64,000 nucleotides of DNA from a virus (IMGVR_UViG_3300045988_170206:32001-96000), one strand, 5' to 3'. Shown: positions 19,123 to 43,502, counted from the stretch's first letter. The notes: generated by a model from the letters alone, not told the origin. Numbers and translations: made by a program.

Positions 19123-19143
19123 CCCCTTATCGGTGAGCGCGGG

Positions 19144-23560: not shown

Positions 23561-24211
23561 TTATTGCCAACTATGGGCTTCTGCTACCAAGGTTACGCGA
23601 CTGAGCGGGTCGGTTGGCTGCGCGGATGGTTGTGGCGCAAGGTTTGCGGCAGGAATCTCGGTGTCCTCGAAGAAGGCAGTGTCTGCTTCTTCGGTGGTTT
23701 CCGTGCTTGCGTCTGAGAAGAACGTGGTGTCGTCGTCTTCTCCGACGTTAGCGGAGCGCTCGAGCGGTGCCGGTGCGGGTGGCTGTGTGGTTCGCGTGGG
23801 GGTGTCTGCGACCTGTAGGGGTGCAGGCTGAGCTGGCGCAGGCTTGGGGGCGGCAATGGGCGCAGGGGCGACTGTGGTGGGCTGTGGTGGGGTTGGGGTG
23901 AGGTCGCCGGAGAGCACGCCGCTTGTGTCGTCGGCGAGTGTACCGCTATCGAACGAGTCACTGTTCGTCGCGTCGTTCAGGGGCGAGTGTTCACCGAGAG
24001 ATAGGGCGGACATCTTGCGGTACGCTTCGACGGCTCCGTCGCTACTCAGTGTCGAGGTGAGGGTTTCAACGGTGTCGGTGAACGCCTGTCCCTTGAGTTC
24101 CCTGCGTGCTGCTGGGATGTCCCATTGGAAGAACAGGATGAGAGCGGTGAAGAACAGGATGAGGGCTGCGACTGCGAGGCCGATTGCCGTTGCGGTGAAT
24201 ACGGTCATCAC
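23561..24211 (-). CDS. N-terminally anchored protein with a Pro-rich, acidic cytoplasmic tail
   Basis: TM IGLAVAALILFFTALILFF. ATGA overlap with the kinase stop. Confidence 0.7.
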   Translation of the reverse strand: MMTVFTATAIGLAVAALILFFTALILFFQWDIPAARRELKGQAFTDTVETLTSTLSSDGAVEAYRKMSALSLGEHSPLNDATNSDSFDSGTLADDTSGVLSGDLTPTPPQPTTVAPAPIAAPKPAPAQPAPLQVADTPTRTTQPPAPAPLERSANVGEDDDTTFFSDASTETTEEADTAFFEDTEIPAANLAPQPSAQPTDPLSRVTLVAEAHSWQ

Positions 24212-25920
24212 TTGGTGGCTCCTTCGGCTGCGTACACAGCATCGACGAGGGTGCGGGACTGGTCGAGCTTCGTGGAGAGCTGGGCTGACAGTTCAGCCGG
24301 TCTTCCTGGTGTCGGGTTGGGGTGCTGCGTGAGGTAGTCTTTCGCGCGCTCGAGCTGCGCGTCAACGTCGGCTTTGGGCACGCCGTCGGTTCGGAGCCTG
24401 TATGTGTAGTTGTTGATGCAGTCCACGATGTAGTTGAGGAGCTGCAACTGTACGACCTCGCCGGAGTTGTCGGTGTTGAGGCTGGTGAGGTTGTTCCAGT
24501 AGGCCCGGTACATGCCGGTGTCGCTGCTGGTTTGGATCGCGGATGCGATGTCGCGGTTGAACGAGCCCATGTTGTAGAGGGCGCTCGCCTGTTCGACGTT
24601 GTAGTTGCCGCTGATCGCGTCCTTGAACCATGGGGCGGATAGGGCGAGGCCGTCGGCGTTTGCGTCGCTGGTGTAGAAAAACCAGTAGAGTTCACCGATC
24701 TGGTAAGCGAGCTCAGGGTAGCGCGGGTTGTCCTGAATGTCCTTAATGTGTTCGCGGACGAGGGGGATGAAGGCAGCTTCCTCAGCGGAGGTGAACCTGC
24801 CGTCTCCCTGCTTGATGGCGGTAATCGTGTCGAAGTATGAGTCGATGTTGGAGGGGCGCGCGTTGATGACTGGCTCCCACGCTTCGACGGTGCCGGCTTT
24901 TTGGGCAGCGCTGGTTAGTGCTGCGTAGGAGTTCGCGTCGGCGTTGGCCCCGTAGGTGTAAGTGCCCGCTGACGCTATTGACATGACGAGGGCTGCTGCT
25001 GCGAGCGCGCCGACGGTGCGGATGCGCCTGCGGTGCTTGGCTCGGTGACGACTATCGGCGGTCTTGTAGGTGTTGAGCGCAGCGATAACTTCGACCATGG
25101 ACGAGTAGCGGTCATCTGGGCGCAGGGCGACACATTTGGCGATCACGTCGGAGAGGGCGCGGCTAACTTCGGGGTTGGCTGCGTGCGCGTCCACGGGGCC
25201 TGTGGGGATGCCCCTGCGGTCGGACGCGGGAAGGTCGCCGACGAGGAGCTGGTACATCGTCATACCGAGGCTGTAGATGTCGCTTCGGATGTCGAGCGGC
25301 GCGCCCTTGGTGATCTGCTCGGGGGGCGCATATCCCTTGGTGCCGAGGGCGTGGGTGTTGATCTGATTGTCAGGGGTGATGACTTCGGCCAGGCCGTAGT
25401 CCATGAGCACCATGGAACCGTTCTGGTACATGATGTTCTTCGGCTTGATGTCGCGGTGGACGACAGGGCCGGGGTGAATATGTGGCGGGAGGGTGTGGAG
25501 GTACTGGAGGATGGTGGCGACCTGCACCATCTTGGAGACAACGAACTGCTCACTGAACCGGCCTTTGTCGGTGCGCTTGGCCGCATCAGCGAGGTCGTAG
25601 CCGCCGATGTAGTCCATGAGGACGGAGTACTTGCCACCCGGCTTGTCGGTACGATCTCGCACGTCGAGGATGCGAGGAATACCGGGGTGGGTGAGGGGCT
25701 GCATGAGGCGCGTTTCGCGCTTGAGGCTATCAACGGCGATTTTGCCGCGGCCTTTAGGGTCGGGGACGGGAGCTGCAACCTCTTTGAGGACGACGAGCTT
25801 ACCGTTCTTAGCGTCGGAAACTCCGTACACCTGGCTAAAAGTGCCGTTGTGGAGTACGGAGCTGATGACGTAGCGGTCCCCCTTGCCGAAGGTTGAGCCC
25901 TTTTTGCGCAGGTTCGTCAT
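24208..25920 (-). CDS. Hanks-type Ser/Thr protein kinase with one TM and an extracytoplasmic domain of about 250 aa that is not PASTA
   Basis: VVLKEV (Lys), HRDIKPKN, DYG, GTKGYAPPE. TM VGALAAAALVMSIASAG. Start MTNLRKKG overlaps the PP2C stop (ATGA). The track ORF extension to 26073 is rejected. Confidence 0.9.
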   Translation of the reverse strand: MTNLRKKGSTFGKGDRYVISSVLHNGTFSQVYGVSDAKNGKLVVLKEVAAPVPDPKGRGKIAVDSLKRETRLMQPLTHPGIPRILDVRDRTDKPGGKYSVLMDYIGGYDLADAAKRTDKGRFSEQFVVSKMVQVATILQYLHTLPPHIHPGPVVHRDIKPKNIMYQNGSMVLMDYGLAEVITPDNQINTHALGTKGYAPPEQITKGAPLDIRSDIYSLGMTMYQLLVGDLPASDRRGIPTGPVDAHAANPEVSRALSDVIAKCVALRPDDRYSSMVEVIAALNTYKTADSRHRAKHRRRIRTVGALAAAALVMSIASAGTYTYGANADANSYAALTSAAQKAGTVEAWEPVINARPSNIDSYFDTITAIKQGDGRFTSAEEAAFIPLVREHIKDIQDNPRYPELAYQIGELYWFFYTSDANADGLALSAPWFKDAISGNYNVEQASALYNMGSFNRDIASAIQTSSDTGMYRAYWNNLTSLNTDNSGEVVQLQLLNYIVDCINNYTYRLRTDGVPKADVDAQLERAKDYLTQHPNPTPGRPAELSAQLSTKLDQSRTLVDAVYAAEGATK

Positions 25921-26618
25921 GCTAGTCCTTCCGTTGAGGCGAGTAAAGCGGTGATGTTGTCCTGTTCTCCCGCTGTTTGTGCGCGCGTAGCGAGGTCGTT
26001 GAGGCCTGCTTCTGTGAGAGCGTCGAGCTTGTTGCCGACGGCCTCGTAAGCGTGCCAAAACCCGTCTGAGCATAGGAGGAATGTGTCGCCACTCTGGTAG
26101 GTGCCGGTGTAGATGTCAGGGGTGTGACCGTCGGCTTTGGGCTTTCCGAGTGCGCGGGTGATGCGGCTGGCGTAGGTGCGGGCGATGTCGGGGGTGATGG
26201 TGACTCCGCGGCGCTTGAAGGCGTTGAGGGCTGAGTGGTCCTCGGTGAGCTGTGTGCCCTCGAGGGTGCCTGCTGGGATCTTGTAGGCGCGGGAGTCGCC
26301 GATTTGGAGGATCCAGTACTGGCCGTCGTAGAGGCGTAGGAGGGTGAGAGTTGTACCTCCTCCCGTGTCGGTGACCTTCTGGTGGGCGGTGGTGACGGCT
26401 TCGATGAGGGTGTCGTCAGTGATGTCTCCGGCCTTGATTGCGTCCATGTAGGTGCGGGCGGCGCTTTGGGAGGCTTGTGCGCCGTTGGCGACTCCGCCCA
26501 TGCCGTCGGCGATGAGTGCGAGGATGCCGGTCTTGCCGTCGGCGGTGAAGGTGGCCCAGGCGTAGGTGTCCTGGTTTTCTTTTCGTTGGTTGCGGTGGGT
26601 GATCGTGTGGACGCTCAT
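25917..26618 (-). CDS. PP2C-family Ser/Thr phosphatase
   Basis: RKENQDTYAW, ADGMGG and CSDGFWH motifs. Confidence 0.85.
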   Translation of the reverse strand: MSVHTITHRNQRKENQDTYAWATFTADGKTGILALIADGMGGVANGAQASQSAARTYMDAIKAGDITDDTLIEAVTTAHQKVTDTGGGTTLTLLRLYDGQYWILQIGDSRAYKIPAGTLEGTQLTEDHSALNAFKRRGVTITPDIARTYASRITRALGKPKADGHTPDIYTGTYQSGDTFLLCSDGFWHAYEAVGNKLDALTEAGLNDLATRAQTAGEQDNITALLASTEGLA

Positions 26619-27733
26619 GCCTGCTCCTTGACGACGTTGAAGGCGACGTGGCCGAGGCGTAGGAGTGCGCCGTCGGGGACGATGGTGGGGGTGTGTGGTT
26701 GGAGGCGGTGTGCGCCGATGTGGGTACCGTTCTTGGAGCCCAGGTCGGTGACGATGACTTGGCCGTCCTGCTCGTAGATCTGGGCGTGGCTGCGGCTGAG
26801 GCTGCTGTCGCGGCTGACGCTGATCTCGCTGCGTGTGGAGGAGCGCCCGATGATGACGGGGCGGGTGAGGATCGGCCAGCTTTCCTCTGTGGTGAGGCTG
26901 TGGAGGCTGTAGGTCGTGGCCGTGGGTTCGTCGTCGTCGAAGAAGCCGGTCATGTCGTCTTCGTTGGTTGCGGCGGATGCTACCGGCTTGGGTACGACAG
27001 GCGCAGGGGCGACGGGCGCGGGGGCAGGTGCGGGGCGCACCGGGGTTTCGACAACTGGAGTTGGCGCGGGAGCCGGTGCTAGAGGTGGCGTAACCGGCGC
27101 GGGGGACTGAACGATGGGGGCCGGTGGGGCTGGAGGTTCAGGGAGCGTCGGCGCAGGGAGAGCTGCTTGTGGCTGTGGCGGCTCTGGGGCTACTACCGGC
27201 GGGGCTGGCGGCTGCGGGGTGGACGCACGGTCGAACAGGGACTTGCGTGCGGGTTGTGGGGTCATCATGGCCTCGAGCTCGGCCACCGCTGACTGTTCGA
27301 CGGCTGGGATGCTCTTGTCCTTGACTGATGAGCGTAGGGCTGCTGCGAGAGCGTCGGGAGTGCCGATGGTCGCGAGAGGACCGTTGGCGGGGGCAACGAT
27401 CTGGCTGAGCGTTACGGGCGACAGGTTGGTGGATACGAGGCGAGGTCCGCCGTTTGCGAGCGCCGCCCAGTGTGGTGCGACCTTGGGCATGATGAAGGTC
27501 CACAGGTTGAAGGTGGGGTTGTCCTGCGGCGGTGCGACGGCGACCCAGAAGTCGCCTTGGCCGTTGGTGACGATGCCGGTTGCTGTGCGGTAGTCGCCTC
27601 CTTCACGGATGAAAGCTCGCCACACGTTGATGATGCCGTCGAGGGAGGCTTTCCCGTTGAGGGTTTCGACGGGGGCGAGTCCGAGCTGCTGTGCGTGGGC
27701 TGCGGGGACGGCTGTCATTGGGGTGATGGTCAT
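26615..27733 (-). CDS. FHA-domain protein (N-domain, Pro/Ala-rich linker, C-terminal FHA)
   Basis: IIGRSSTRSEISV..SLSRSHAQIYEQDGQVIVTDLGSKNGTHI. Start MTITPMTAV lies just after the upstream stop. The track extension to 27952 is rejected. Confidence 0.85.
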   Translation of the reverse strand: MTITPMTAVPAAHAQQLGLAPVETLNGKASLDGIINVWRAFIREGGDYRTATGIVTNGQGDFWVAVAPPQDNPTFNLWTFIMPKVAPHWAALANGGPRLVSTNLSPVTLSQIVAPANGPLATIGTPDALAAALRSSVKDKSIPAVEQSAVAELEAMMTPQPARKSLFDRASTPQPPAPPVVAPEPPQPQAALPAPTLPEPPAPPAPIVQSPAPVTPPLAPAPAPTPVVETPVRPAPAPAPVAPAPVVPKPVASAATNEDDMTGFFDDDEPTATTYSLHSLTTEESWPILTRPVIIGRSSTRSEISVSRDSSLSRSHAQIYEQDGQVIVTDLGSKNGTHIGAHRLQPHTPTIVPDGALLRLGHVAFNVVKEQA

Positions 27734-27740
27734 TGTCTGC

Positions 27741-29222
27741 TCACTTTCCGCTGGAGGGGTTTCCGGCGAGGACGCGGAACCAGATCGGATTGGTGGATCG
27801 GTCGTAGGAGGCTCCCCAGATGAGGTAGAGCTCGGAGAGTCGCGTAGAGGAGGTCCAGGACTCGAGAGTCCCAGATTCACCTGGCGCGAGGGTAACGCTG
27901 TTCGTGAGGCCGTACACGGTGCCGGTCCTGGTGTAGGGGTTGCGTGTGGCATCGACGAGGGTGTCGTCGGGGGTGAGTGTGATGGTCTCGGTGCCGAGGT
28001 TGCGGACCTTGAACGTGTAGAAGGCGTACTGCACTTCGCTCGCTTCGACGAAGCCTCGGTTTTGTGCAGACTTTTGGCTCATGGCGCGGAATGCGTCGGG
28101 GCCGGTGAGGAACGCACTGAGGGTAACTTCGATGGGGGTGTCGGTACCGTCGGTGGTTTTGACGACGACGGGCGTGTTCAGACCTGCGGGAGCGTTGAAG
28201 GTGCCATCTCCAACTCGGGGGAGCGCGCTCGTATCAGGCAGGGATCCGTCTTGTCCTGCACTGGTGAGGGCGTGTGCGCCGATCCAGTTGGGCTCGGTGT
28301 AGTAGTTATCCGCGTATTTGCGGCTGGTTTTGGCTTCTTCGGTGTCTTCGTCGCGCGTGGTGGCGGTAGTATGCTCGGGATCGAGAGCGTCTACGGCGAG
28401 TTCGCTGAATGTGTCTTGGAGCTTGTGGAAGCTGTCGGACGCGAACAGGGTGTCATCCATATACACGTCCTCAGCGCTGGAGAGTCGGCAGGAGGAGCCG
28501 AGGCCGGTGCCGGTGCAGTCCATGACGGGAGGGCGGCTGACGGTGGTCGTGGGGAGGTTGGCGGCGTTGGCTGCAATGTAGCTGGCGAACGCATCCGTGA
28601 CTTTACGGCTGAACTCCACGTCGCTGATCGACGTGAGCTTCGCTTTGGCGAGCGCGTCCTTCACGCCGGTCTTGTCGAGGGTGACTGCCCCGTAGTCTAC
28701 GAGCTGGAAGTCCACGTTCTCACCGTTGTTGAGCGTCGAGGGGGCGGTGGTGGGTTTCCAGGTGAAGGGGTTGCGGTGGGGCTGGCCTGTCCAAGTGAGC
28801 TGCCCAGTTTCAGGAAGCTGGTAGGTGACGGTGGCGAGGATGGCTCGCACGGCGTTGGTGCGTGCTTCGTTACCGTTGAGGTAGTCGTACTCCCGCGCCA
28901 CCCAGGACTGCTCGATGACCGAGTTGAGTCCGTCGGTGTCGAAGTCGTGGAGGGCCGTCATGTAGGGCACGAACGTGGAGGTGCCTTTAGCGGCCTCGGG
29001 GAGGCTCTTCGCCGGCGGGACAATGACCCCGAAGTAGGTGCCGATCAGTGCGACGGGCACTAGGGCGATGAGGGAGCGCTTGAGGAGCTTCTTCTTTCCG
29101 CGCTTCTTCTTGGCTGACGTTGCAGGTGTAGCGGGTGACCCCCACGAGTCCCAGGCCTCGCCTTGCGCGGGCACGTTGTTCTGCATGGGGGTGGTGGGGA
29201 TGTTGGTGTCCCAAGAAGCCAT
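27741..29222 (-). CDS. Single-pass membrane protein with a large ectodomain (C-terminal DUF4352-like Ig fold)
   Basis: KKKRGKKK followed by TM LIALVPVALIGTYFGVIV. C-terminal FKVRNLGTETITLTPDD...LAPGESGTL pattern. Confidence 0.7.
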   Translation of the reverse strand: MASWDTNIPTTPMQNNVPAQGEAWDSWGSPATPATSAKKKRGKKKLLKRSLIALVPVALIGTYFGVIVPPAKSLPEAAKGTSTFVPYMTALHDFDTDGLNSVIEQSWVAREYDYLNGNEARTNAVRAILATVTYQLPETGQLTWTGQPHRNPFTWKPTTAPSTLNNGENVDFQLVDYGAVTLDKTGVKDALAKAKLTSISDVEFSRKVTDAFASYIAANAANLPTTTVSRPPVMDCTGTGLGSSCRLSSAEDVYMDDTLFASDSFHKLQDTFSELAVDALDPEHTTATTRDEDTEEAKTSRKYADNYYTEPNWIGAHALTSAGQDGSLPDTSALPRVGDGTFNAPAGLNTPVVVKTTDGTDTPIEVTLSAFLTGPDAFRAMSQKSAQNRGFVEASEVQYAFYTFKVRNLGTETITLTPDDTLVDATRNPYTRTGTVYGLTNSVTLAPGESGTLESWTSSTRLSELYLIWGASYDRSTNPIWFRVLAGNPSSGK

Positions 29223-29231
29223 GTCTTTTCC

Positions 29232-29858
29232 TTACCCGAATATGTTGCTGAAGAAGGTATCTGCGTTCGCCGTGTCTTCCGGCTCTGGTTCCGGCTCTGG
29301 CTCGTCTGCCCTGTGGGGCGATGGAGTGTCGTCGATGCGGGGGGCGAAGTCGTCCTCGTTGTCACCCGTGGGGAACACCCAAGGGCTCACAGCGTTAGAA
29401 CCAGTTGTTTCCACCTGAACCTGTTGGGGTTCTTGGGGTTTTTGCTGGGTTCTGAGCAGTTCTCGGACGAGGGATTCAAGCTCGTCCATACGGTCGTCCT
29501 TCTTGGGCTGTGCCTGTGGGGCCTGAACGACGACCTGCGGTTGTACGGGCGCAACCTGCTCGAAGTAGCTTATCCCCTGCTGTGTGCGCATGGTGAGTGA
29601 GTCAAGCATGAACTGGAGGCGGTCGTTCTCCCGCTGCGCTTCATCCAGGGCTGTTTGGAGCTGAGCGCGCTCGAAGTCTTCCTCGTAGCCGAGCATGACG
29701 TTGACGATGCGTCGCACTTCCTCATTGTCGCGGTAAGCGGTCAGTAGGGTGATGACGAGGGGGGATGCCTGCCGTTGCTGAGCGAACGGGCGGATCACGT
29801 CGTCGTAGATGTCCTGCGGGAGGCCCTTGACGACCAGTGTGTGTTTACTCGATGACAT
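29232..29858 (-). CDS. Hypothetical protein with a ribbon-helix-helix-like N-terminus and a coiled coil (ParR-like adaptor candidate)
   Basis: KHTLVVKGLPQDIYDDVIRPFAQ fits a beta-strand/helix RHH start. The rest is a coiled coil and an acidic tail. Inference only. Confidence 0.65.
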   Translation of the reverse strand: MSSSKHTLVVKGLPQDIYDDVIRPFAQQRQASPLVITLLTAYRDNEEVRRIVNVMLGYEEDFERAQLQTALDEAQRENDRLQFMLDSLTMRTQQGISYFEQVAPVQPQVVVQAPQAQPKKDDRMDELESLVRELLRTQQKPQEPQQVQVETTGSNAVSPWVFPTGDNEDDFAPRIDDTPSPHRADEPEPEPEPEDTANADTFFSNIFG

Positions 29859-31206
29859 CGGTCAGCCTATCTCCCTCGCGGACAACGTTCGTAGCAACTG
29901 ATCTGGCGATGAACTGGATCAACTGCTGCGCCTGCCCAGCTGTTGAGGGTTTGTAGATGAGGGCTCGAGGCTGAGGGTTCAGGCCTCCGAGGTTGATGAG
30001 GGTCGCTCGTAGCGACTGGATGATTCCGTCGATGATGACGGTGGGGAGCTTGTGGGCTGCGAACGCCATGTAGAGGACGCGCGCGACCATGCTGTTGGCG
30101 GGTGGGCCGACGAGGATGATCTGCTTGCCGTCGTGGGCGACCTGTGCGAGGCGAGCTGCCCAGTCCACGAGCAGATAGGAGAGGTCGTTCATGTAGGAGC
30201 GCGCTCCCATGGTGATGAAGCTGACCTGGTTGACACTGGTGTCCGTGTAGGGGACCGGGCCGGTGCCTTTGGTGAGCCATGTGCGCCCATCGGTCACATC
30301 GTTGGTGCCGAAGCGGTAGTCGATGAGGCTGTCCACGTTCAGGTCGATGATGCAGACGGGACCGTTGTAGGCGAGTTCTGCGGCGTACTTCTGGATGAGC
30401 TTGTACGTCGTTTGGACGGCTCCCCCGGTGCCGGGGAAGAGCACGTGTAGGCTCTTGACGACCGTCGGTGAGAGTGTGGCGACCGTCGGCAGGCTCAGCG
30501 TCAGGATGGAGTCTGCGTTGGAGAATGCGTCAAGGCGCGCGAACGGGGATCGCTCAAAAGCTGCGAGCCGTTTGCGGAGTTCCACGTCACTGCCGCCGTG
30601 CATGACCTGCTTTTCGAGTTCGGCCTTTTCTCGGGCGAGGCGCGTCGCGTCGGCTTCGAGCGCGGCAATGCGGTCACTCTCTGACGCTCGAGTGTTCAGG
30701 AGAGCTTCCTGTTCCGCGAGCTTCTGGTTCGCTGCGTCGAGGTCGGCTTGCAGTCGCGCCACGTCGGCATTGGGGGACGTGACGGCAGGCGCGACAGTTG
30801 AGGTGGCCAGTTGGGGAGTCACCGTGTTAGCTCCTTGAGCGGCGGCAAACGTGGCGAGCACCTGCATGAAGGCTGTGGGATCTAGCGGCTGTTCTCCCGT
30901 GGGAGCGTCGAGCTTCGCTCCTCGAGCATTCAGAGCTTCAGCGAGGCGCGCGTCAGTTGAGTAGGGGATGTACTTGTCGGTGCTCACGATGCTGGGTGCG
31001 ATGCGACCACTATCCGCGTACCCGTCAGGGACGATGAAGGCCACCACGTCATTGCGCGTGGCGCTCCTGTGCGACTGGAGCTTGAGGCTGGTGGCTGACA
31101 CTTCCGACAGTTCGACAACATCCTCAGCCCCGTAAATCTGCGCGAAGCCCTCGCGTGCGAGTTTCACCGCGGAGGCGGGGAGGCCGTAGTAGTAGGCCTT
31201 GAACAT
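29845..31206 (-). CDS. Three-part protein: receiver-like N-domain, coiled coil, degenerate MinD/ParA-like C-domain (TadZ/CpaE-like architecture)
   Basis: The C-domain has LFPGTGGAVQTT where a deviant Walker A would sit (no Lys), then VCIIDLNVD and IILVGPP. Central ARLQADLDAANQKLAEQEAL... coiled coil. Confidence 0.6.
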   Translation of the reverse strand: MFKAYYYGLPASAVKLAREGFAQIYGAEDVVELSEVSATSLKLQSHRSATRNDVVAFIVPDGYADSGRIAPSIVSTDKYIPYSTDARLAEALNARGAKLDAPTGEQPLDPTAFMQVLATFAAAQGANTVTPQLATSTVAPAVTSPNADVARLQADLDAANQKLAEQEALLNTRASESDRIAALEADATRLAREKAELEKQVMHGGSDVELRKRLAAFERSPFARLDAFSNADSILTLSLPTVATLSPTVVKSLHVLFPGTGGAVQTTYKLIQKYAAELAYNGPVCIIDLNVDSLIDYRFGTNDVTDGRTWLTKGTGPVPYTDTSVNQVSFITMGARSYMNDLSYLLVDWAARLAQVAHDGKQIILVGPPANSMVARVLYMAFAAHKLPTVIIDGIIQSLRATLINLGGLNPQPRALIYKPSTAGQAQQLIQFIARSVATNVVREGDRLTDVIE

Positions 31207-31307
31207 GCTGGGCTCCTTCCTATGTGGTGGGGCCTCCGCGCCCCTACCTGTTCGACTGGGTGAGCAGGGGGCCAGTGAACCGTGGGGGCGCGGAGGGGCT
31301 TGTGGGA

Positions 31308-32573
31308 TTACTTCTTCGCGTTCTTGTCGGCGAATCGCGCGAAGTTGATGGCACCTTCAATGTTGAGGGTGCGCAGGTTGACGCCCTCCTTGATGGGGAG
31401 GAGTTCGATGTCGGGGGCGAAGGAGCGGACCTGACGTACAACCGACTCAGCGATGGGTTCCATCTCTTCTGCCCTGTCGAGAGAGGGGTCTGTCTGTTCC
31501 GTCTTGATCGCGCCGCCGCCTATGACGAGGAGGTAGGCGAACTCATCGGGCGCGAAGCGGTTGGCTTCGAAGGTGTTTCGCAGGTTGGCCGTGATAGTGC
31601 CTGCAACCTCGTTGCGGGCGGCGTTGACCTGGCGGGACACGTCCTTGCGCTTCACGCCTGAACGGATGGTGCCGGTGAGGACCGCTTCTGTGGCGGCTTC
31701 ACGGGAGAGTGCGCGACCGTGTTCCTGGTGCACGTACTTGGCGACCAGGGAGGCAATGGTGTTGCCGCCAACGGGGTAGGAAGCGGACGCGGACGTAATG
31801 GGGTTGAGGTTCTTGATGAACGTCACGTCGGCAGTGCCGGCCCCGAGGTCGAGGACAATGATCGGCTCGTTTACACAGTCTGCATAGTCGGCGACTGTGC
31901 CCATCGCAGGAGTGAAGACGGTGGCACTGAAGCCTGCCAGACCCTCCGCGAGGACGGACACGTCGCCCACCTTGATCGGGATGCTGACACGCTCAGGAGC
32001 GATGACCTCCACGCTCTTCGAGAGCGTGAAGATCTTCTTGAAGGTCTCTCCCTTTCCGGTCTCGCTGGGCGGGGCGAGGAGAGTCACGTCCCAGGTGATC
32101 TCCAGAGACTCCGGCTTCTTACGCAGGAGCTTCGCAACGAGTTCACGCCCGACGAAGACGGCGTAGTGGAAGCTCCACAGTGTCGTCTCGGACTGTGCCT
32201 TCGTCGCAATGGCAGAACTGGGGCGTGTTGCCGACATGGCGAACTCTCGGTCAGCGAGAGGCCCTGCGGCGTACAGGTGAGTTGGTTCACCAGCTGCGAG
32301 GCCCTGGGGTGCCCGGAAGATGATCGAGCGGAGCTCGTTGGGCTTGCCATTCACCTCGTCGGCGACGTACTGCTCTGGGATTACGTAATCGTCCCCGATG
32401 GCCGCGAAGGCGTTGGGGAGGATCGTGATGGGGCTGGCCTTGCCGTTCACGAGGACAGCAACTCGGGTTTCCGAGTTGCCGAAGTCGATAACCAGGCGCG
32501 CCTGCACCTTGGTCTTGGTCTGCTCACTCACTGCGCTGCCTTTCTGTCGGTTTTTCTGCGCTGTTTGCATCAT
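31308..32573 (-). CDS. Actin-like ATPase of the ParM/Alp (plasmid segregation) type
   Basis: Phosphate-1 LVIDFGNSETRVAV, phosphate-2 IVLDLGAGTADVTFI, adenosine motif LLVIGGGA. Confidence 0.75.
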   Translation of the reverse strand: MMQTAQKNRQKGSAVSEQTKTKVQARLVIDFGNSETRVAVLVNGKASPITILPNAFAAIGDDYVIPEQYVADEVNGKPNELRSIIFRAPQGLAAGEPTHLYAAGPLADREFAMSATRPSSAIATKAQSETTLWSFHYAVFVGRELVAKLLRKKPESLEITWDVTLLAPPSETGKGETFKKIFTLSKSVEVIAPERVSIPIKVGDVSVLAEGLAGFSATVFTPAMGTVADYADCVNEPIIVLDLGAGTADVTFIKNLNPITSASASYPVGGNTIASLVAKYVHQEHGRALSREAATEAVLTGTIRSGVKRKDVSRQVNAARNEVAGTITANLRNTFEANRFAPDEFAYLLVIGGGAIKTEQTDPSLDRAEEMEPIAESVVRQVRSFAPDIELLPIKEGVNLRTLNIEGAINFARFADKNAKK

Positions 32574-32601
32574 TTTATCGGTAAATGGCCTGTCTGTGTG
32601 T

Positions 32602-33441
32602 TTAGGCGCGTCTGTGTCGTTGATTAGCGACGTTCGCTTCGAGAGCTCGGGCGTTGACTGTGGCGTTGCTGAGTCCCGGCATGAGGAGTTCTCGGGTGAG
32701 GGTTCCTTTCTCCCACCCTTCTTGGATGCGGGCTATCTGAGTGCCGGAGTACTGGAAGCTACCGTCCTCGTTCTGGGAGGAGAGCTGCTGCATGAGGCCG
32801 GGAACCGTGTCGGGGATGCGTGTGGCGTACATGTCGGCGAGTGCTTCGAGGGTGTCGGCCTGGCTGTTCCTCGTGAGGGGCAGGTCGGCGAGGATTGGTG
32901 CCCGGCTGATCTGGTGGAGTTGTTCCTCGTTGAGGCCTGCGCGCGCGAGGCTGGGGCGCGCGAGGCTGAGGAGGGAGCGTAGGGCCGTGTCGGAGGAGAT
33001 GCCCGCGTTGAGGTAGGGCTTGATGTCCATGCCTTGTGCGAGGGCGCTCTCGTAGAGGGAGAGCTGGGTTTCGCGCATGTACCGGAAGTCGCATCCTGTG
33101 GTGGGGTATCCGCGCGCTGTCCATTCGAGTACTGCTGCGAGGACGGGAACAGTGAGGCCCATCTTGAGGAAGGGCCTGAAGCTGTTGAGGTTGCCCTGGT
33201 TGTGGGCGTGGTTGCGGACGATACGCAGGATGGGGGCGGGGAGTACGAAGAATGGCTCGGGGATGGTTTCGAGCATGGCGAGCCGGATCTGGTGGAGGTC
33301 GTCGGGATCTCGGTCGATGTAGGGCATGATCGGGGTGCCGTCGAAGATGGCGCTGCGTACCTCGTCGAGGATGTCGAGGGGGTAGCCGGTGAGGATTGCT
33401 CGGTAGTTCTCGAGCGTGAGTTCTTTGCCTGCATACTTCAC
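32602..33441 (-). CDS. Hypothetical protein (279 aa)
   Basis: GTG start (VKYAGKELTL) forms a GTGA overlap with the upstream stop. The Pro/Arg-rich track extension to 33687 looks non-coding. Confidence 0.65.
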   Translation of the reverse strand: MKYAGKELTLENYRAILTGYPLDILDEVRSAIFDGTPIMPYIDRDPDDLHQIRLAMLETIPEPFFVLPAPILRIVRNHAHNQGNLNSFRPFLKMGLTVPVLAAVLEWTARGYPTTGCDFRYMRETQLSLYESALAQGMDIKPYLNAGISSDTALRSLLSLARPSLARAGLNEEQLHQISRAPILADLPLTRNSQADTLEALADMYATRIPDTVPGLMQQLSSQNEDGSFQYSGTQIARIQEGWEKGTLTRELLMPGLSNATVNARALEANVANQRHRRA

Positions 33442-34088
33442 TGGTCGGTGCCTTTCGTCGTGGTGGTGAGCGCTGCGCGTCGCTGGGCTGTGGCGTGCAC
33501 GAGTTCGTCGAGCACATGAGGGTAGAGGCTGCACATCCAGGAGCGGTTGGTGCTCCACCCGTCGGTGGGATGGTGGAGTGCTGTGGGGATGCGGGCGGCG
33601 TTGAGGCTTTCGAGGTAGGAGGTGACTGCGGCGTGAGGGCTGAGGTCTTTGTAGTGGAGGCGCGCTGTGGGTGGCATGTTGGCCCACGTGTAGGAGCCGT
33701 CGTGCTGCTGCTGGAGTTGCTGTGCGGTTACGTCGAGGATGAGTGCGTCGTAGGCCAGGCCTCGGGTGGCTTCAGCGGCGCGGGTGCCATTGCTCGAGCG
33801 GGGGCTGGTGATGGCGACGGCGAGGACATGTCCGTCGTCGTAGTGGAGGGCGTATTCGTCCTTCTTGATGGTGCGGGCCCCTTCTCGGTTGTAGATGGGC
33901 AGGGGGATGGTGGCGAGGCGCGCGAGAGTGTGCAGGCGAGCGAAAGACGGGTGGGCGCACAGGTCGATGCGGGCCGTTCGTTCGACGGTTGCTCCGGCGC
34001 GTCGGCACGTGGAGTAGGCGACGTGGCCGCGGTGTGGGGCGTGGACCGTCGTGTATGGGGTGGAGCTGATGAGCTCTCGGAGGTTCAT
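33438..34088 (-). CDS. Hypothetical protein (216 aa)
   Basis: ORF coupled at both ends within the operon. Confidence 0.7.
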   Translation of the reverse strand: MNLRELISSTPYTTVHAPHRGHVAYSTCRRAGATVERTARIDLCAHPSFARLHTLARLATIPLPIYNREGARTIKKDEYALHYDDGHVLAVAITSPRSSNGTRAAEATRGLAYDALILDVTAQQLQQQHDGSYTWANMPPTARLHYKDLSPHAAVTSYLESLNAARIPTALHHPTDGWSTNRSWMCSLYPHVLDELVHATAQRRAALTTTTKGTDQ

Positions 34089-35110
34089 TCGTCGTTGTCC
34101 TCAGTGGCTAGGTGTCGTGTCGCTTCGAGCTGTACTCGTTGCGCGAGGTCGGGTGGGGGGAGTTCGCCGTGCGTGTCCCAGGCTGGCGGTTGTCCGTTGA
34201 GGGCTTCGGCGTTCTCGAGCTTGAAGCGTTCACGGTCGAAGTCGATGCCGCGCTGGGAGAGCGCCCAGTAGGCGAGGTCTACCTCGGACAGGATAGTGGG
34301 CGTGAGCTGTCCATCGCGGGTGACGACTGTGGGCACGGTGTTGGTCTGGTCGATGGGTTCGATCATGTACGGCTCTTGGTAGCCGAGGTAGCCGACGGCG
34401 CAGTCGGCGAGATGGTAGGAGGCATCGTGGGGTTGGGGCGGGGCGATGAGGTCTGTGTACTTCCACCTGTCGGCGAGGGGGATGTTGCACAGGTCGGTGA
34501 TGGAGTCTTCGATGGTGCCGTTGATCGGCCAGGCCTGTAGGTCCAGCTGGTCGCTGGTGGCGGGGTCGTTGCGGACAACGGCGAGGGTGCAGCCAGTGAG
34601 GCGCGGGTAGGAGCCTGCCGTTGAGGCGGTGGAGAGGCGCGAGTGGACGACGACGACGCTGCCGGTGGTGAACCAGGCGGCGGCGCGTTTCTCTTCGACG
34701 GTGGCCGGGCGGAACGTGTCGAGCTCGCGGGTGACTCCCTGCCAGAGCACATAGTCGATGTCCCTGTAGGTCGCGTTCGTCGTGTCGATGTCGATGTCGG
34801 GGTTGTTGAGCTGCCAGAGGAGGAGCGCGAGCGGCTGGAAGATGCGTCGGTTCTTCACGTGCGCGACCGGGGGCGTGATGAGCGCTCGCGGGGTGGGGGT
34901 GGTGCGGGCCCAGTGGGCGAGGCCGCTCATGTAGGCGGTGACAGTCTGTGCGTCGGTGAGCTTCGGCTCCGTGGAGACGGTGACGGTCGTCGTGTCTCCC
35001 TCACGGGTGAGGGTGGCGCGCTTGTGGGGGCGCTTCTCAGTGTGGAGTAGGGTCTCCCACTGCTGTTTGTAGGGGAGTGCTTGTCGGGCTTGGGTCTGCG
35101 GGTTCATCAT
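34085..35110 (-). CDS. Hypothetical protein (341 aa)
   Basis: ORF coupled at both ends within the operon. Confidence 0.7.
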   Translation of the reverse strand: MMNPQTQARQALPYKQQWETLLHTEKRPHKRATLTREGDTTTVTVSTEPKLTDAQTVTAYMSGLAHWARTTPTPRALITPPVAHVKNRRIFQPLALLLWQLNNPDIDIDTTNATYRDIDYVLWQGVTRELDTFRPATVEEKRAAAWFTTGSVVVVHSRLSTASTAGSYPRLTGCTLAVVRNDPATSDQLDLQAWPINGTIEDSITDLCNIPLADRWKYTDLIAPPQPHDASYHLADCAVGYLGYQEPYMIEPIDQTNTVPTVVTRDGQLTPTILSEVDLAYWALSQRGIDFDRERFKLENAEALNGQPPAWDTHGELPPPDLAQRVQLEATRHLATEDNDE

Positions 35111-35766
35111 CGGCGGGCCTCATTTCGGAGCTTCTGGGCAAACATGTACTGGTCGTTCGAGTTGCCGCCGGTGCCGGTGATGAGTGCTGCGACGTAGGCG
35201 AGAGTTCCCGCGTCGAGGGCGTGGAGTTCGTCGTGGATGCGAGCCTTCGAGAACTGCATGACGTAGGCGAGGGTCTGCTGGAGCAGCTCGATGTCTGGCG
35301 AGGCCGTGGAAGTCGTGCCATTGGTCGCTGCTTTGAGTTGGGCGATGAACTCGGAGTCGAAGTAGTCCTCGAGGCTCCCGGTGCCGGTGTCGCGGGCGAC
35401 GGCGCGGTCGAGGGTGCGGGCGGCGGCTGCGAGAGAATCGGGGGTGTCGGTGGTGATGAGGGTGAGGAAGTTCTTCCCGAGGCGAGCTTCGACTTCGCGC
35501 AGTCCTTTTTCGACTTCGATGCGCACGGTTGTCTCTTTGCGGTTGAGGTGCTTGCCGATCTCCTCGTAGCTCATGCCTTTATGGGCGAGCGCCCCATCGG
35601 GAGTGCCGGGGATACGGAGCCGGATTGCCTGCGGGTAGAGGCGGGTTTGCCGGTAGGACGCTCCCCTGATGTAGACGACGGTGCGGTTGATGAGGGTTTG
35701 CGCGTCGGCGGACAGGGTATGCGCGTTTGAGACAAGCCTCGTTAGTTGCGTGTAGAACCTCGCCAC
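35107..35766 (-). CDS. Transcription regulator with a sigma-70 region-4 / LuxR-type HTH
   Basis: GMSYEEIGKHLNRKETTVRIEVEKGLREVEARL. GTG start at 35766 lies 5 nt after a perfect AAGGAG. First gene downstream of the iteron array. Confidence 0.6.
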   Translation of the reverse strand: MARFYTQLTRLVSNAHTLSADAQTLINRTVVYIRGASYRQTRLYPQAIRLRIPGTPDGALAHKGMSYEEIGKHLNRKETTVRIEVEKGLREVEARLGKNFLTLITTDTPDSLAAAARTLDRAVARDTGTGSLEDYFDSEFIAQLKAATNGTTSTASPDIELLQQTLAYVMQFSKARIHDELHALDAGTLAYVAALITGTGGNSNDQYMFAQKLRNEARR

Positions 35767-36187
35767 GATGCTCTCCTTCTGACCACTGATTGAGGGGGTG
35801 ATCGTTGATGTGGGAAAAACCATCGTTTTTTGTCCACGCGCTTTTGCTGGCGGCGTTTTGGGCCTCCTGGAGGGGTTCACCGCCGGTTTGGAGGTGCGCG
35901 TGGACTCAAAATGATGTCTGAAACCATCATTTCACGATCAACATTTTTCATCACTTTGAGCGGTCGGAGGGTCGCAGATTGAGATGCGGGTCGGGCGTTG
36001 GGGACGCGGTAGAGGTGGCTAGAGGGGGTTGTTGGCGCGGCGACGCGAGAGTCAGGAATGGGGTGTTTTATCGGGGTTTGTCCAGTTGTGCCACTGCCGG
36101 GTGCTTGTCGGTGGGATGTAATCCCCGCCTGTGTGGACCTATAGTTGCGCCGTGTATATCCTCGCTTCTCTCGGTGGGAACTGGCTC

Positions 36188-36673
36188 TAGTGCTACCTAG
36201 ATGTCCGCTAGTACACCCCTGAACTATGTCTAGTGCAACCATGATCTAGGCATGGTTAACCTGGATGTCGATAGGTTCAACCTATATCTTCTATATTGCG
36301 TGTGGACCTAGCCTCTGGTAGTACCAAGAACTAGCTCTAGTTACACCTGTATCTACGCAGGGTTAACTTGGATGTCGATAGGGTTAACCTGTATCTCGAC
36401 AGGTACAACCACTATCTATGTTTTCTCGTGCTGATCTAGGCCTAGGTACAACCTCTATCTGCGCAGGTATAACCTCTATCGCTACAGGTACAACCGTTAT
36501 CTCGGTCAGGTGCAACCTGTATCTTCGATATTGCGTGTGGACCTAGGGGCTAGTAGTACCAAGAACCAGGTAGAGGCAACCCGGATGTCGGGAGGGTCAA
36601 CCTAGATGTTGGCGGCGGTGTACCTGGATGTGGGTCTAGTGCTACGCGGATGTGGCGCTAGGTGCACTTCCTT
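36188..36673. repeat. Iteron array: about 18 same-orientation copies of (T/C)AGGTNCAACCNNNATCT at about 21-bp periodicity, containing a nested pair of 54-bp direct repeats
   Basis: Examples: AGGTACAACCACTATCT, AGGTACAACCTCTATCT, AGGTATAACCTCTATCG, AGGTACAACCGTTATCT, AGGTGCAACCTGTATCT, GGTTAACCTGGATGTC. Long repeats at 36278-36331 and 36513-36566 (about 46/54 identical). Confidence 0.85.
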
Positions 36674-36693
36674 CCCTGTGTGAGCATAAGGAG

Positions 36694-36728
36694 CGGCCCC
36701 TCGCTCGTGGTTATGAGCCGAGGGGCCG
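36694..36728 (-). terminator. Hairpin terminating the ATPase/J-domain transcription unit
   Basis: CGGCCCCTCG (36694-36703) pairs with CGAGGGGCCG (36719-36728), 15-nt loop, 20 nt downstream of the 36749 stop. Confidence 0.5.
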
Positions 36729-36748
36729 ACTTGTTGGAGTGGAAGGTT

Positions 36749-37066
36749 CTAGCGTGAGCACTCCGTGGCGTGGGAGTAGATCTTTGCGAGGTCGTCGGGT
36801 GCGACGTTGGCGAGCGAGTGGGTGTCTTGGATCTGGGAGATGGCTACGGGGTCGAGGTCGCTCCATGATTTCTCAACCATGCACTGTGTGGTGGTGGCCG
36901 TGTACTCGCCGAGGCCAACGATGCCCTCGGGCACGTAGGAGCTGGTCCACGGGTGCCAGAGGGTCACGAGGTAGATGACGGCGGCTGCTAGGAGGATGGA
37001 GAGGATCGACTGGACGATGCCGCGGGTTTTGTGCGCCATGCGGAATGGCGTGAAGATGCTGAACAC
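36749..37066 (-). CDS. Small single-pass membrane protein (105 aa)
   Basis: TM IVQSILSILLAAAVIYLVTLW. Follows the J-domain gene. Confidence 0.65.
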   Translation of the reverse strand: MFSIFTPFRMAHKTRGIVQSILSILLAAAVIYLVTLWHPWTSSYVPEGIVGLGEYTATTTQCMVEKSWSDLDPVAISQIQDTHSLANVAPDDLAKIYSHATECSR

Positions 37067-37078
37067 GGCTGGGGCCTT

Positions 37079-37318
37079 TCAGTTGTTGCGCACGGTGTAG
37101 CGCAGTGGGTGGCGGTCGTGGATGAGGACGGGGCGGGCGAGTGCTTCCTTGAGGCGCTGGTGTGCGTTGTTGAGTTCTTGGAAGGCGTGGGGGTCGCCGC
37201 CCCTGTCGGGGTGGAGGGTGCGAGCTCGGGCGCGGAACGCTCGGTTGAGGTCGGCGAGGGTCGCGGTGGAGGTCACGCCGAGGAGCTTGAGGTCGTGGGG
37301 GTTAGGGCGGGGGGTCAT
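37079..37318 (-). CDS. Stand-alone J-domain protein (79 aa)
   Basis: LLGVTSTATLADLNRAFRARARTLHPDRGGDPHAFQELNNAHQRL with the HPD tripeptide. ATGA overlap with the giant ATPase gene. Confidence 0.85.
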   Translation of the reverse strand: MTPRPNPHDLKLLGVTSTATLADLNRAFRARARTLHPDRGGDPHAFQELNNAHQRLKEALARPVLIHDRHPLRYTVRNN

Positions 37319-40300
37319 GCTTGTTCCTTGTTCTTCATCTGCTGGCGGTAGTTGGCGATGCCGCCGCCGATCATGGAGGCGAGGCTGCGCACGCCCCTGG
37401 ATGCGACGTTGGCGGCTCCCATGGCGAGGGTGCCGGTGAGGCCTGCGGTGATGCGCCAGGTCTTGCTCAGGCCTCCGAGGTCGGTGCGCTGCCAGGTCTT
37501 GCGCGTGTAGTCGCTGGCGTTGCGTTGGCCTGTGGAGAGGATGTGCGTGGCGGCGGACATGGCGCGCTGCATTTCGTCGTAGCGTCGCACGCCTGATGGT
37601 GTGCCGTTGATGGTGCTCCAGGTCTGGCGGTCGAACTCTTCGCCTTCGATGCTGATGTGCTGGAGGAGCGGCATGTCAGCGAAGAGCTGGGAGATTGACG
37701 AGTCGGGCTTGTACCCGAGGTCGGGGCAGACGTAGGAGCAATAGAAGTCCCAGGAGTCGAAGGACAGTCGGCGCAGGTTGGGCATCTCCCGTAGGACGGT
37801 CCAGTTCATGATGGGCGCGATGTTGGAGGAGCGGATCGCGTCGGTCATGTACGGGGGGATGACTTGGTTGTTGCGCCAGTCGTCGGTTACCTGGGTGCGG
37901 TAGGCGACTCCGTTCATGATGATGGTTTCGCCGACGACTCCGACGCGCTTGACGCGAGCCCAGGTGCCGGCCCATTCGTTCATGTCGGCGTAGAGCGCTG
38001 CTTGCACTGCGTCGGGGGTCATCTCTGTGGGGGTGATGGTGCGGGGGGTGCTGGTGTTGAACTCGTAGCCGCCGCCGGTGGTGGGTCGCACGGGGCTGGT
38101 GGAGTAGTCCCATGTGGGGGCGGGCGCGTCGGGTTCGTCGGGCATGGCCATGCGGTCGGCGTTGGGGTCGGTGGTGTCGTCCATGTCGGGGACGGTGGGG
38201 GCCGGGGGCATGGGTGGCGGTGGGGGGACAGGTGGGATTGGCGCAGTGGGTGTGGCGACGGTCGGGGGTTGGGGGATCGCTGTGTGCGCGTCTTGGGTGT
38301 CGCTGGCGGCGCGCTCGGCGGCTGGCTTATCGTCGTCGCCGGTGAGGCCGCTCATGTCCCACTCTTCTGCGTCGCTGCCCGCGAGCGCGAAGCCGCTGTT
38401 GGTGTCTTCTGACTCGAAGGCCTGGGGGTAGACGTGACGGAATAGGGTGACGGACTGGGGATCGTACTCGTAGCCCTGGAAGACGTTGTAGATGTCCTCG
38501 ACGGAGGCGATCCACTGCGGGCGCAGGTCGGACACCCATTCTTGCCAGGTGCCCTCGTAGCCGAGTTTGCGGACGGTGAGGTTCGCTGCGTCGGAGAGCT
38601 TCTGGAGTGTGGCCGCGGCTTGCTCGCGGGTGACTCCGGCTTTCGCGAGGTAGCCCTCAAAGCCGAGGGAGGGGTCGAGCTCGCCGGTGTCGGTGGACAC
38701 GTCGCGTCGGACGGCTTCTACGTCCACGCCTGCACTCTTCATGTAGGAGATGGAGTTGTTCCAGCAGTAGCCGTCTTCACTGCCGTCGGCGAACAGGAGG
38801 CCGGGGCGCAGGTAGGTGGCGGTGCGCGCGACGGATTCGTCGCCGTTCATGATCTTGTGGATGTTATCGCCGCTGAATCCGGGGAGGTAGGCGAAGCATC
38901 GCATGGTGGAGGACAGCTTGTCGGAGGCGTAGGAGCCGGGGGTGAGCTGGTTCAGGTAGTTGCGTCCAGGGTGATGGCCGATGAGCACGTCGGTCTTGCC
39001 GATGGAGGCGTAGCTGTAGATGAAGTTGTCAGCCTCCTTGAAGGGGATCGAGATGTTCTTCGTGCTGGCGTTGAGCGGTTTGCCTGCGGGGAAGAACTGG
39101 CCGATGTCAGTGACGGGGTTGACGGGATCCTGGCCGATCATGAAAACGCGGGAGCGTTTGGCTTCGGCGTTGTTGAAGCCTGCGTTGCGTAGCTGGGATA
39201 GTTTCTCGAAGGAGCGGCGCATCATGAAGTACATGCTGGTAAACCACAGTTCGCCGGGGTTCACTTCCTGCTTGGGCTTCTTCTTGTCGTCGAAGTCGGA
39301 CTGCTCCCACGCGACCCACTCGGACTCGTAGTTCGTGTAGCACATGTGGCCTTGCATGTTGGACTGGAAGAACGTCTGGATCTGCTGGTTCGTGTTACTG
39401 ATTTCATCGAACACGATGCAAATACCGTCTTTTCCGCCTAGTTGTTCAGCGATTTCGGGGCTGATTGTGCGGGCTGCGAGCATTCCGAGCGCGAGGATCA
39501 TGTATCGCAGGTAGACGACGGTGCCGAGGGTGCCCGTGTAGCCGGGGGCCCACGCGAGGTTGTTCTTGTTCAGGTACTCGGGGATGTGGGCGCGGGCTTC
39601 GAGCTCGGCGACCTTTGCTGCCGTGTACTGCATGAACATGTCCGTACCCTCTTCGGGGTTGCTGGCGATGTTCGAGCCGTTGATGACGAAAGCGTCGGGG
39701 TTGATCGACAGGAGAAGAGAGGCCATGTCGGGCTTGTTGTCGCCCAGGCCCGGCGCGATGCCGGCGATGAGGTGCATTGCAAGGATCGTCTGCGTGGTCA
39801 GGCCCTTACCGGATCGGGAGCCCGCGAAGATGCCGTGGCTGGTGTGATCGTTGAACTGCCTGATCTCCTTGCCGGTGGTCACTACGTCATCATCGAGGCC
39901 GATGCCGAGGATCATGTTGCTGGCGCTGGGCTTGCGTCCCTGGCGTTGCATCGCGTCGAGGATCTTGCCTGCCCACACGGGTGAGGCGTTGGCGAGTACC
40001 TTGTCCATGTCGTGCCGGAACTCCCAGAAGATCCCCTCGTTGATGGGGTCGTAGTTCTGGGCTGTTGTGCCGCCTGCGAAGCCGAGGGCTTCGACGATGG
40101 CGCGCTCGACGATGTTCTCGCTGAAGCCTTCGTAGGGGGTGAGGACTCGGACCTTGACCTTGACGGGGATGTTGCTCGGGGAGTTGTCGTAGGCGGAGAC
40201 GAGGACGCACGTCGTCATGGCCTTGTAGATGCTCTCGAGCGCGCCGACGACCTTGGTCATCATGGAGGGGTCGTGGTAGGCGAGGCCGTTGTCGGCTTCG

Positions 40301-42248: not shown

Positions 42249-42272
42249 GATGGGTCCTTTGCTTGGTTGGGG

Positions 42273-43499: not shown

Positions 43500-43502
43500 G
43501 CG

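Follow-up and report, generated by a model that had tools for sequence, protein, structure and literature searches.

For DNA segregation, actin-like (type II) and ParA-like (type I) systems are regarded as alternatives. Why, then, does a ParM-like actin come in an obligate pair with a protein that has the ParA/MinD fold but has lost its catalytic loop? The question is raised by IMGVR_UViG_3300045988_170206:32001-96000, a stretch of DNA of 64 kilobases (kb) that is referred to below as the window and represents 64 kb out of an element of ~140 kb. An initial annotation, made from the sequence alone, had proposed that three adjacent genes, encoding an actin-like ATPase, a degenerate MinD/ParA-like protein and a small DNA-binding candidate, act together in segregation or positioning. 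We find that these genes form one conserved unit, newly recognized here, and that a bitopic membrane protein is a fourth conserved component. The cassette is most likely to be an undescribed multi-component variant of actin-driven plasmid segregation, carried by a plasmid-like element from an oral actinobacterium. Its genes and their parts are as follows, with lengths in amino acids (aa) and overlaps in nucleotides (nt).

31308–32573, minus strand: ParM-like actin-fold ATPase (Alp), 421 aa, presumed cytomotive filament protein
29845–31206, minus strand: three-part accessory protein (pseudo-MinD, p453), 453 aa, with a receiver-like N-domain, a coiled coil and a MinD/ParA-fold C-domain
30922–31206, minus strand: receiver-like N-domain of pseudo-MinD (residues 1–95)
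30601–30774, minus strand: coiled coil of pseudo-MinD, a 58-residue helix (residues 145–202)
29848–30468, minus strand: MinD/ParA-fold C-domain of pseudo-MinD with a degenerate P-loop (residues 247–453)
30406–30435, minus strand: PGTGGAVQTT motif of pseudo-MinD (residues 258–267)
29232–29858, minus strand: small adaptor-like protein (p208), 208 aa, the start of which overlaps the stop of the pseudo-MinD gene by 14 nt
29724–29858, minus strand: N-terminal strand-helix-helix-like module of p208, conserved
29235–29264, minus strand: C-terminal hydrophobic tail TFFSNIFG of p208, conserved
27741–29222, minus strand: bitopic membrane protein, 493 aa, fourth cassette gene, with one transmembrane helix near residues 50–68

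The open reading frames (ORFs) of Alp, pseudo-MinD and p208 were confirmed at these coordinates on the minus strand. A search of IMG/VR with an Alp profile yielded 40 loci on contigs of 7–278 kb (of which 32 measure 97 kb or more), with Alp identity down to 22%. The pseudo-MinD gene lies 3' of the Alp gene in 39 of the 40, directly so in 37, and the remaining contig ends too early; gaps of 1.0 and 2.2 kb separate the two genes in loci L034 and L039, respectively. Starting in reverse from the pseudo-MinD family, an Alp gene was found immediately upstream in all four contigs, which had been picked at 25–30% identity. An adaptor-type gene comes next in 18 of the 40 loci as detected by a hidden Markov model (HMM) of the N-terminus, and the same architecture is present in all five divergent-group loci that were read through. 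The stop of the pseudo-MinD gene and the start of the adaptor gene overlap by 4, 8 or 14 nt in most loci. Beyond the trio that had been described earlier, homologs of the 493-aa membrane protein (25–51% identity) are encoded after the adaptor gene in 13 of 15 representative loci, the exceptions being L001 and L003, and also in pXO16, a plasmid of Bacillus thuringiensis. The hosts are evidently very diverse, since the loci span 34–63% G+C content (GC). This conserved and mostly translationally coupled synteny across very divergent elements argues strongly for the proposal that the three genes act together.

The genes might instead be adjacent through a shared backbone, with pseudo-MinD acting independently of Alp and no joint function. 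An upstream DHH-like protein, a UvrD helicase and a downstream kinase module are also syntenic across the same relatives, which favors such a view. However, these neighbors vary, the DHH-like gene being absent from the window and from both high-GC relative groups and no kinase module being annotated at the pXO16 cassette, whereas the four cassette genes stay contiguous, with overlapping or near-abutting frames, at protein identities of 22–40% and over the whole of that GC range. We regard an accidental association of this kind as highly improbable.

The assignment of Alp to the actin fold is borne out by all three nucleotide motifs, namely DFGNSETR (residues 30–37; 32463–32486), DLGAGTAD (residues 242–249; 31827–31850) and GGGA (residues 352–355; 31509–31520). 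These motifs had been recognized in the initial annotation, and the phosphate-1, phosphate-2 and adenosine motifs all proved to be invariant in an alignment with relatives at 27–34% identity. Alp matches the Pfam family MreB-like_C (PF21522) with 51 bits (gathering score 27.8), its remaining family matches are only to filament-forming actin relatives (ParM, BeeR, MreB, MamK and PilM-like), and it matches PHROG 691, 'partition protein', at 7e-17. When a profile of the Alp clade was compared with PDB sequences, the top matches were BtParM (8e-14), C. botulinum ParM (1e-9) and pSK41 ParM (2e-7), followed lower down by MamK (9e-6) and MreB (2e-5), with the best DnaK at 1.7e-3. Neither PilM nor FtsA is present among the 60 best of the 105 PDB matches (E ≤ 1). 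Alp alone, as a single sequence, gave no match to any solved ParM owing to the low identity. At the level of sequence profiles Alp thus groups with the plasmid-partition ParMs and away from Hsp70 and the sugar kinases, the alternative placement that had been raised for it.

The structure of pseudo-MinD was predicted with AlphaFold2 using 40 family members as the alignment. The model (mean predicted local distance difference test score, pLDDT, of 89.7) displays a β-α N-domain, a long helix and an α/β C-domain, bearing out the receiver-like, coiled-coil and P-loop-like parts that had been delineated in this gene. The N-domain contains four strands alternating with helices, with no acidic pair following strand 1. 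A Foldseek search of the PDB matched the C-domain to FleN, BcsQ, MinD, FlhG, McdA, Soj and Wzc with a probability of 1.0 and an E value of ~4e-6 (target-normalized TM-scores of 0.5–0.6 for FleN, BcsQ, MinD, FlhG, McdA and Soj), and the ParA/MinD fold call was therefore correct. Foldseek also aligned 3fkq, a two-domain protein with a receiver and a MinD-like domain, over 464 columns. The family, as collected by an exhaustive HMMER search, comprises 176 clusters at 50% identity with lengths of 400–1250 aa. Its members share a C-terminal domain of ~200 residues behind a long coiled coil, and most have hundreds of coiled-coil residues in place of the receiver domain. Pfam, NCBIfam and PHROGs contain no matching family except for coiled-coil noise, and no CpaE/TadZ model was matched. 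A whole-length profile of the family was swamped by myosin and SMC coiled-coil matches when compared with the PDB and was set aside; a C-domain-only profile gave a below-significance alignment to the BY-kinase BceF in the segment after Walker A.

The nucleotide site of pseudo-MinD is degenerate throughout the family, as the label 'catalytically degenerate, TadZ-style' had implied for the window protein. The window sequence at the P-loop position is GTGGAVQTT and the family consensus is SGSxES[RN][KR]. The deviant Walker A sequence KGGxxGK[ST] is lacking in pseudo-MinD, GK[ST] occurs in this loop in none of 157 family members and no member has a canonical Walker A. The absence of lysine from the PGTGGAVQTT motif, noted earlier, holds for the window allele but not for most close homologs. 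Among the 120 closest (at least 91% identity), the Walker-lysine position is occupied by Lys in 104 (GTGGA[IV]KTT), by Gln in ten, including the window protein, and by Thr in three. Because this polymorphism occurs among such similar proteins, constraint at the position appears to be relaxed, which is most simply read as the mark of a site that no longer hydrolyzes ATP; the Lys alleles may bind nucleotide weakly. As judged from sequence pattern alone, the strand QIILVGPP appears to carry Gly at the putative Walker B position, at which MinD has Asp.

The first 55 residues of p208 are conserved among relatives. Its homologs, which are encoded after pseudo-MinD in all groups of relatives, have the same architecture throughout: the conserved N-terminus is joined by a coiled-coil segment and a low-complexity acidic stretch to a hydrophobic C-tail that is short and has variants such as FFSNIFG, SSIGGF, SIQGW, SGFG and SFSFGG. 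This layout is that of ParR, with a putative N-terminal DNA-binding module, a flexible acidic linker and a C-terminal hydrophobic peptide, and by analogy the conserved C-tail is a putative motor-binding peptide. The ribbon-helix-helix (RHH)-like start that had been suggested for p208 is compatible with the order of its predicted elements, a coil with a strand-like segment (residues 1–14) followed by two helices (residues 15–28 and 33–41). The RHH fold itself was not confirmed: the AlphaFold2 model, for which only close homologs were used, has a pLDDT of 57 overall and of 41–55 at the N-terminus, and profile searches of the PDB and Pfam gave no RHH family.

In the membrane protein, the short cytoplasmic N-tail is marked by W/G motifs together with a basic run, and the external domain is large. 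Of 13 members of this family, 11 show an approximately ten-fold enrichment of WG/FG dipeptides in this tail over their remaining sequence. A comparison of the window protein with its homologs in L018, L024, L035, L036 and pXO16 revealed WG in the N-tails of the high-GC and mid-GC relatives and of pXO16 and FG in those of the low-GC relatives, at 20–86 per 1000 aa versus 2–8 elsewhere. The C-terminal tail of the adaptor ends in a similar aromatic-Gly motif. The motifs of the two tails could serve for docking to a common partner.

A candidate DNA site lies at the head of the operon, and four further genes separate it from the Alp gene.

36178–36660, no strand: iteron array of ~20 units of 21 bp, intergenic, at the operon head; candidate centromere and/or operator
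35107–35880, minus strand: first gene 3' of the iterons, encoding a 257-aa protein with a segment that resembles a helix-turn-helix (HTH) or sigma region 4
32602–35110, minus strand: three tightly packed or overlapping genes (341, 216 and 361 aa) between the HTH gene and the Alp gene

The iterons cited previously near 36188–36673 are real and are unique to the operon head. Their minus-strand consensus is GATAGAGGTTGTACC plus a spacer, with higher-order repeats of 107 bp and 235 bp. The core ATMNNGGTNNNAC occurs nine times in the array and 11 times in the window, compared with 2.2 expected, and none of 100 shuffles reached 11. All close relatives contain the identical core at the equivalent site, and relatives at 40% Alp identity contain another iteron (core TTGGTCAT, 21–22 bp period) just 5' of the homolog of the HTH gene. 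The array fits a protein-binding site because its position is conserved while its sequence has diverged, and such turnover at a fixed place is the pattern that would be expected of a site co-evolving with its binding protein. The 257-aa protein, homologs of which are encoded in L017, L018, L024 and L025, has sub-threshold Pfam matches to HTH_38 (1.8e-4) and Sigma70_r4_2 (1e-3). The 341-, 216- and 361-aa proteins have no matches in Pfam or NCBIfam, and homologs of 34085–35110 and 32602–33687 are located upstream of the Alp gene in relatives. A promoter and terminator scan of 27000–37400 gave nothing beyond chance level.

What kind of element carries this cassette? Among 72,556 PLSDB plasmids, Alp and the 493-, 1526- and 1628-aa proteins of the window match only ten copies of B. 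thuringiensis pXO16. This plasmid (pBTHD789-1, NC_018516.1) contains a homologous four-gene cassette in unchanged order (BTF1_RS29905 to RS29890), in which Alp alone is named ('ParM/StbA family') and the partners are annotated as hypothetical. The window Alp matches the pXO16 'ParM/StbA family protein' at 4e-24 (tblastn, 90% of length, 24% identity), an HMM of the pseudo-MinD C-domain scores 7e-15 and the membrane proteins are 33% identical. The giant proteins of 1628 aa (1085–5971) and 1526 aa (37315–41895) have pXO16 counterparts at 30% identity (4e-127) and 26% identity (3e-54), respectively. pXO16 differs from the window element in its Firmicute host, its size of 350 kb and the DHH-like gene directly before the Alp gene. 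It is a low-copy conjugative plasmid (PMC6199540, PMC9673590), the sequence of which has been called 'terra incognita' and which has an unusual transfer system without recognizable type IV secretion system (T4SS) parts (PMC9673590, PMC6199540); 350 kb are reported to be transferred in ~4 minutes without a recognizable relaxase or oriT (PMC9673590). Since the cassette and the two giant proteins match only pXO16, the window element is an actinobacterial relative of pXO16-like giant plasmids, although pXO16 has been called nearly unique to B. thuringiensis israelensis. No close DNA-level relatives of the window were found among plasmids. Its close relatives are many metagenomic contigs of 135–165 kb, the metagenome-assembled genome labels of which disagree (Schaalia sp. 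versus Rothia mucilaginosa).

The cassette, as traced by sequence, is not unique to the window element but is found in pXO16 and in dozens of metagenomic elements of 100–280 kb. Low-GC elements (L035–L056) that carry it are nearer to pXO16, with DHH-like proteins that are 33–36% identical. These are IMG/VR contigs of 44–278 kb, most of them longer than 175 kb, with a GC of 34–38%, and several of their sample identifiers look like those of the Human Microbiome Project. In view of their size, GC and replichore layout, some overlap with the Streptococcus 'Inocle' elements (PMC12340149) is possible; the description of those elements makes no mention of ParM, partition or pXO16 (PMC12340149). The DHH-like protein (480–560 aa) is encoded directly 5' of the Alp gene in 29 loci (among L010, L017, L018, L031–L057 and pXO16), with an overall range of 28–36% identity to the pXO16 protein.

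A different role for the cassette would be a phage-type organization of DNA. AlpC and AlpA of the Corynebacterium prophage CGP3 have been reported to organize viral DNA, and if the element were a phage or phage-plasmid then Alp and its adaptor could organize viral DNA replication or packaging. IMG/VR lists relatives, both close and distant, among its viral contigs (100–280 kb), an uncultured siphovirus supplies the best structural match in BFVD (a 456-aa 'ParA') and the host is actinobacterial, as for CGP3. Against this, a comparison of 20 window proteins with PHROGs identified no capsid, portal, terminase or tail family, the sole tail-type match being a lysozyme or transglycosylase domain; Alp and pseudo-MinD have no match in 50,697 GenBank phage records; and the only cultured relative is the conjugative plasmid pXO16. 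We consider a viral role of this kind to be very unlikely, and a phage origin was judged unlikely on the same absences, as seen in 64 of ~140 kb. The elements catalogued in IMG/VR as the viral contigs L011–L057 may be plasmids misfiled as viruses.

On balance, the region is probably the maintenance cassette of a pXO16-like giant plasmid, serving partition or positioning in a type II-like way, with an obligate pseudo-ParA accessory and a membrane anchor. By analogy with ParR and ParM, the adaptor p208 would bind the iterons and use its C-terminal tail to capture ATP-driven Alp filaments at their ends, and filament growth would move plasmid copies apart or keep them apart. Pseudo-MinD would serve as a non-enzymatic hub, a constitutive dimer held by its coiled coil instead of by ATP, that either regulates or bundles the filament or joins the adaptor–DNA complex to the membrane protein, with the cytoplasmic [WF]G-rich tail of the latter as the docking site. 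The outcome would be a membrane-referenced address for low-copy replicons of 100–350 kb.

Several observations weigh against a partition role. In two Logan contigs of 29–35% GC the cassette is altered: L003 has no pseudo-MinD gene or partners 3' of the Alp gene, and in L001 a PARP gene is inserted ahead of the adaptor gene, separating it from pseudo-MinD. Where mobile elements are related, common descent instead of function can account for part of the conservation of gene order. The adaptor has a weak N-terminal model and drew no RHH family from the PDB and Pfam profile searches, and the 257-aa HTH-like protein could be an alternative iteron binder or autoregulator. A distance of 3.6 kb, occupied by four genes, separates the iterons from the downstream Alp gene, unlike the situation of parC. 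Finally, the two extra conserved partners, together with downstream FHA, PP2C and Ser/Thr kinase genes and giant surface proteins in many relatives, suggest a link to the cell envelope for which simple partition would have no need.

That last observation bears on the main alternative, that the cassette is a positioning scaffold for an envelope machine, such as an atypical conjugation, aggregation or pilus apparatus, in which Alp and pseudo-MinD dock on the membrane protein and segregation is secondary. The minus-strand run of abutting or overlapping genes starts after the intergenic region 35881–36748 and extends to at least 19144. It begins with the 257-aa HTH-like protein, the 341-, 216- and 361-aa proteins and Alp, followed by the 453-, 208- and 493-aa proteins, and it continues on the same strand with an FHA protein, a PP2C phosphatase, a Ser/Thr kinase, a 216-aa protein, a giant 1463-aa Big-domain protein, a DUF7507 protein, a pilin and a sortase. 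This downstream block is conserved up to the giant Big-domain protein in L010 and L018. The TadZ-like two-domain architecture of pseudo-MinD, reflected in the 464-column alignment to 3fkq, and the consistently linked bitopic membrane protein with its [WF]G-rich cytoplasmic tail fit an envelope role as well. So does the lack of recognized T4SS parts in the unusual transfer system of pXO16 (PMC9673590), and ParM and ParR of R1 are reported to stimulate conjugation (PMC4949242). On the other side, the Alp profile matches partition ParMs, with no PilM or FtsA in the 60 best of its 105 PDB matches; the conserved N-terminal module of the adaptor is typical of DNA binders, and an iteron array heads the operon; the window has no Tad genes; and pXO16 keeps the cassette with no FHA, phosphatase or kinase annotated within 20 kb downstream, where most genes are merely hypothetical. 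An envelope scaffold with segregation in second place is unlikely as the primary role, and the partition and envelope-positioning readings are not mutually exclusive. A combination of the two that we regard as a long shot is cytoskeleton-assisted conjugation, in which a membrane-anchored actin machine couples the giant plasmid to an unconventional pXO16-like transfer apparatus. Alp filaments, tethered by pseudo-MinD to the [WF]G-rich tail, would deliver DNA to the mating site or hold it there, which, if true, might help to explain the reported transfer of 350 kb in ~4 minutes (PMC9673590).

How does the proposed maintenance cassette compare with known systems? It shares with the type II ParMRC systems (R1, pSK41, pBMB67 BtParM/BtParR and Cb-ParM) an actin-fold ATPase, the closest solved relatives of which are these ParMs, a small downstream protein with a conserved N-terminal module and a C-terminal peptide like ParR, and tandem iterons at the operon head. 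The iteron period of pSK41 parC is similar, at ~20 bp. Type II systems are two-protein systems of motor and adaptor; the window adds an obligate pseudo-MinD gene between the two and a linked membrane-protein gene, and its iterons are placed further upstream, behind four genes. In TadZ/CpaE (PDB entry 3fkq), too, a MinD-fold domain whose nucleotide site is non-canonical comes after a receiver-like domain, and 3fkq aligns over both. In the window protein, however, ~150 residues that include the 58-residue coiled coil separate the domains and the partner is actin-like, and no Tad components were found in the window, the pilus genes of which encode a sortase and a Gram-positive (sortase-assembled) pilin. 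TadZ/CpaE is a polar localization factor for Tad pili, and the actin-fold PilM acts through the cytoplasmic tail of PilN. Type Ib ParA–ParG/ParF–ParG loci encode a small Walker ATPase and, after it, a centromere-binding protein of the RHH type. Within the trio, the second and third genes, a MinD/ParA-fold gene and then a small RHH-like gene, have the same arrangement, and by analogy the pseudo-MinD/adaptor pair may descend from a type I locus co-opted by Alp. The window ParA-fold protein differs in lacking the Walker A lysines and glycines, and the window adaptor is arranged like ParR and not like ParG, with its putative DNA-binding module at the N-terminus and its tail at the C-terminus. Among cytoskeletal partition systems, the nearest precedent for a third protein is TubY, an HTH and coiled-coil modulator of type III TubZRC for which membrane and DNA binding have been reported (PMC7762940). 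TubZRC/TubY is also a cytomotive-filament partition system with an extra linked protein that bears oligomerizing helices, but its motor is tubulin-like and TubY has no MinD fold (PMC7762940). We found no description in the literature of an Alp paired with a pseudo-ParA, nor of the pXO16 ParM locus or its neighbors.

The surroundings of the cassette show the organization of the element. The predicted genes from 1 to ~42000 are all on the minus strand and those from 43500 onward are on the plus strand; this change of strand coincides with a switch in GC skew, beside which a replication gene is located.

44077–45642: DnaD-like replication initiator (PHROG 270, 3e-32), beside the GC-skew switch

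The region 42000–45700, ~6 kb from the iteron array, is likely to be the replication origin region; a 24-bp tandem repeat is present within it at 42819–42869. No ParA, ParB or TubZ was found among the larger ORFs of the window. The gene at 60750–62564, which contains 23 GAC triplets in a row (60861–60930), encodes a ParB_N-like segment and an HNH nuclease domain and is probably not a partition ParB. An ORF of 79 aa (37079–37318) between the 1526-aa gene and the iterons is syntenic with a 79-aa PF00226 (DnaJ) gene of L006 and L007. FHA, PP2C phosphatase and Ser/Thr kinase genes (24208–27952) directly 3' of the cassette, which have the same order in the distant loci L010 and L018, could act as a module that regulates either the cassette or the surface-protein genes after it. 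The latter (14024–23535, one strand) encode a sortase, a SpaA-type pilin, the DUF7507 protein and the 1463-aa Big-domain protein, a surface-adhesion set that may be the functional counterpart of the pXO16 aggregation region. Insertions are tolerated at the junction of the 232-aa gene with the giant Big-domain gene, since the close relative L006 carries IS605-type OrfB/TnpB and resolvase genes there (19067–20961 of L006). A T2SSE-type ATPase is encoded ~5 kb upstream in L001 only.

If the proposed mechanism is true, the cassette would be a clear case in which a bacterial actin has recruited a pseudo-ATPase as a structural partner, and it would also be a membrane-referenced partition machine with several components. 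For pXO16, most of which is unannotated, it provides a first handle on function; this plasmid was thought to be nearly unique and has many relatives in the human oral microbiome. The host of pXO16 is a genetically tractable Bacillus, so the hypothesis is directly testable.

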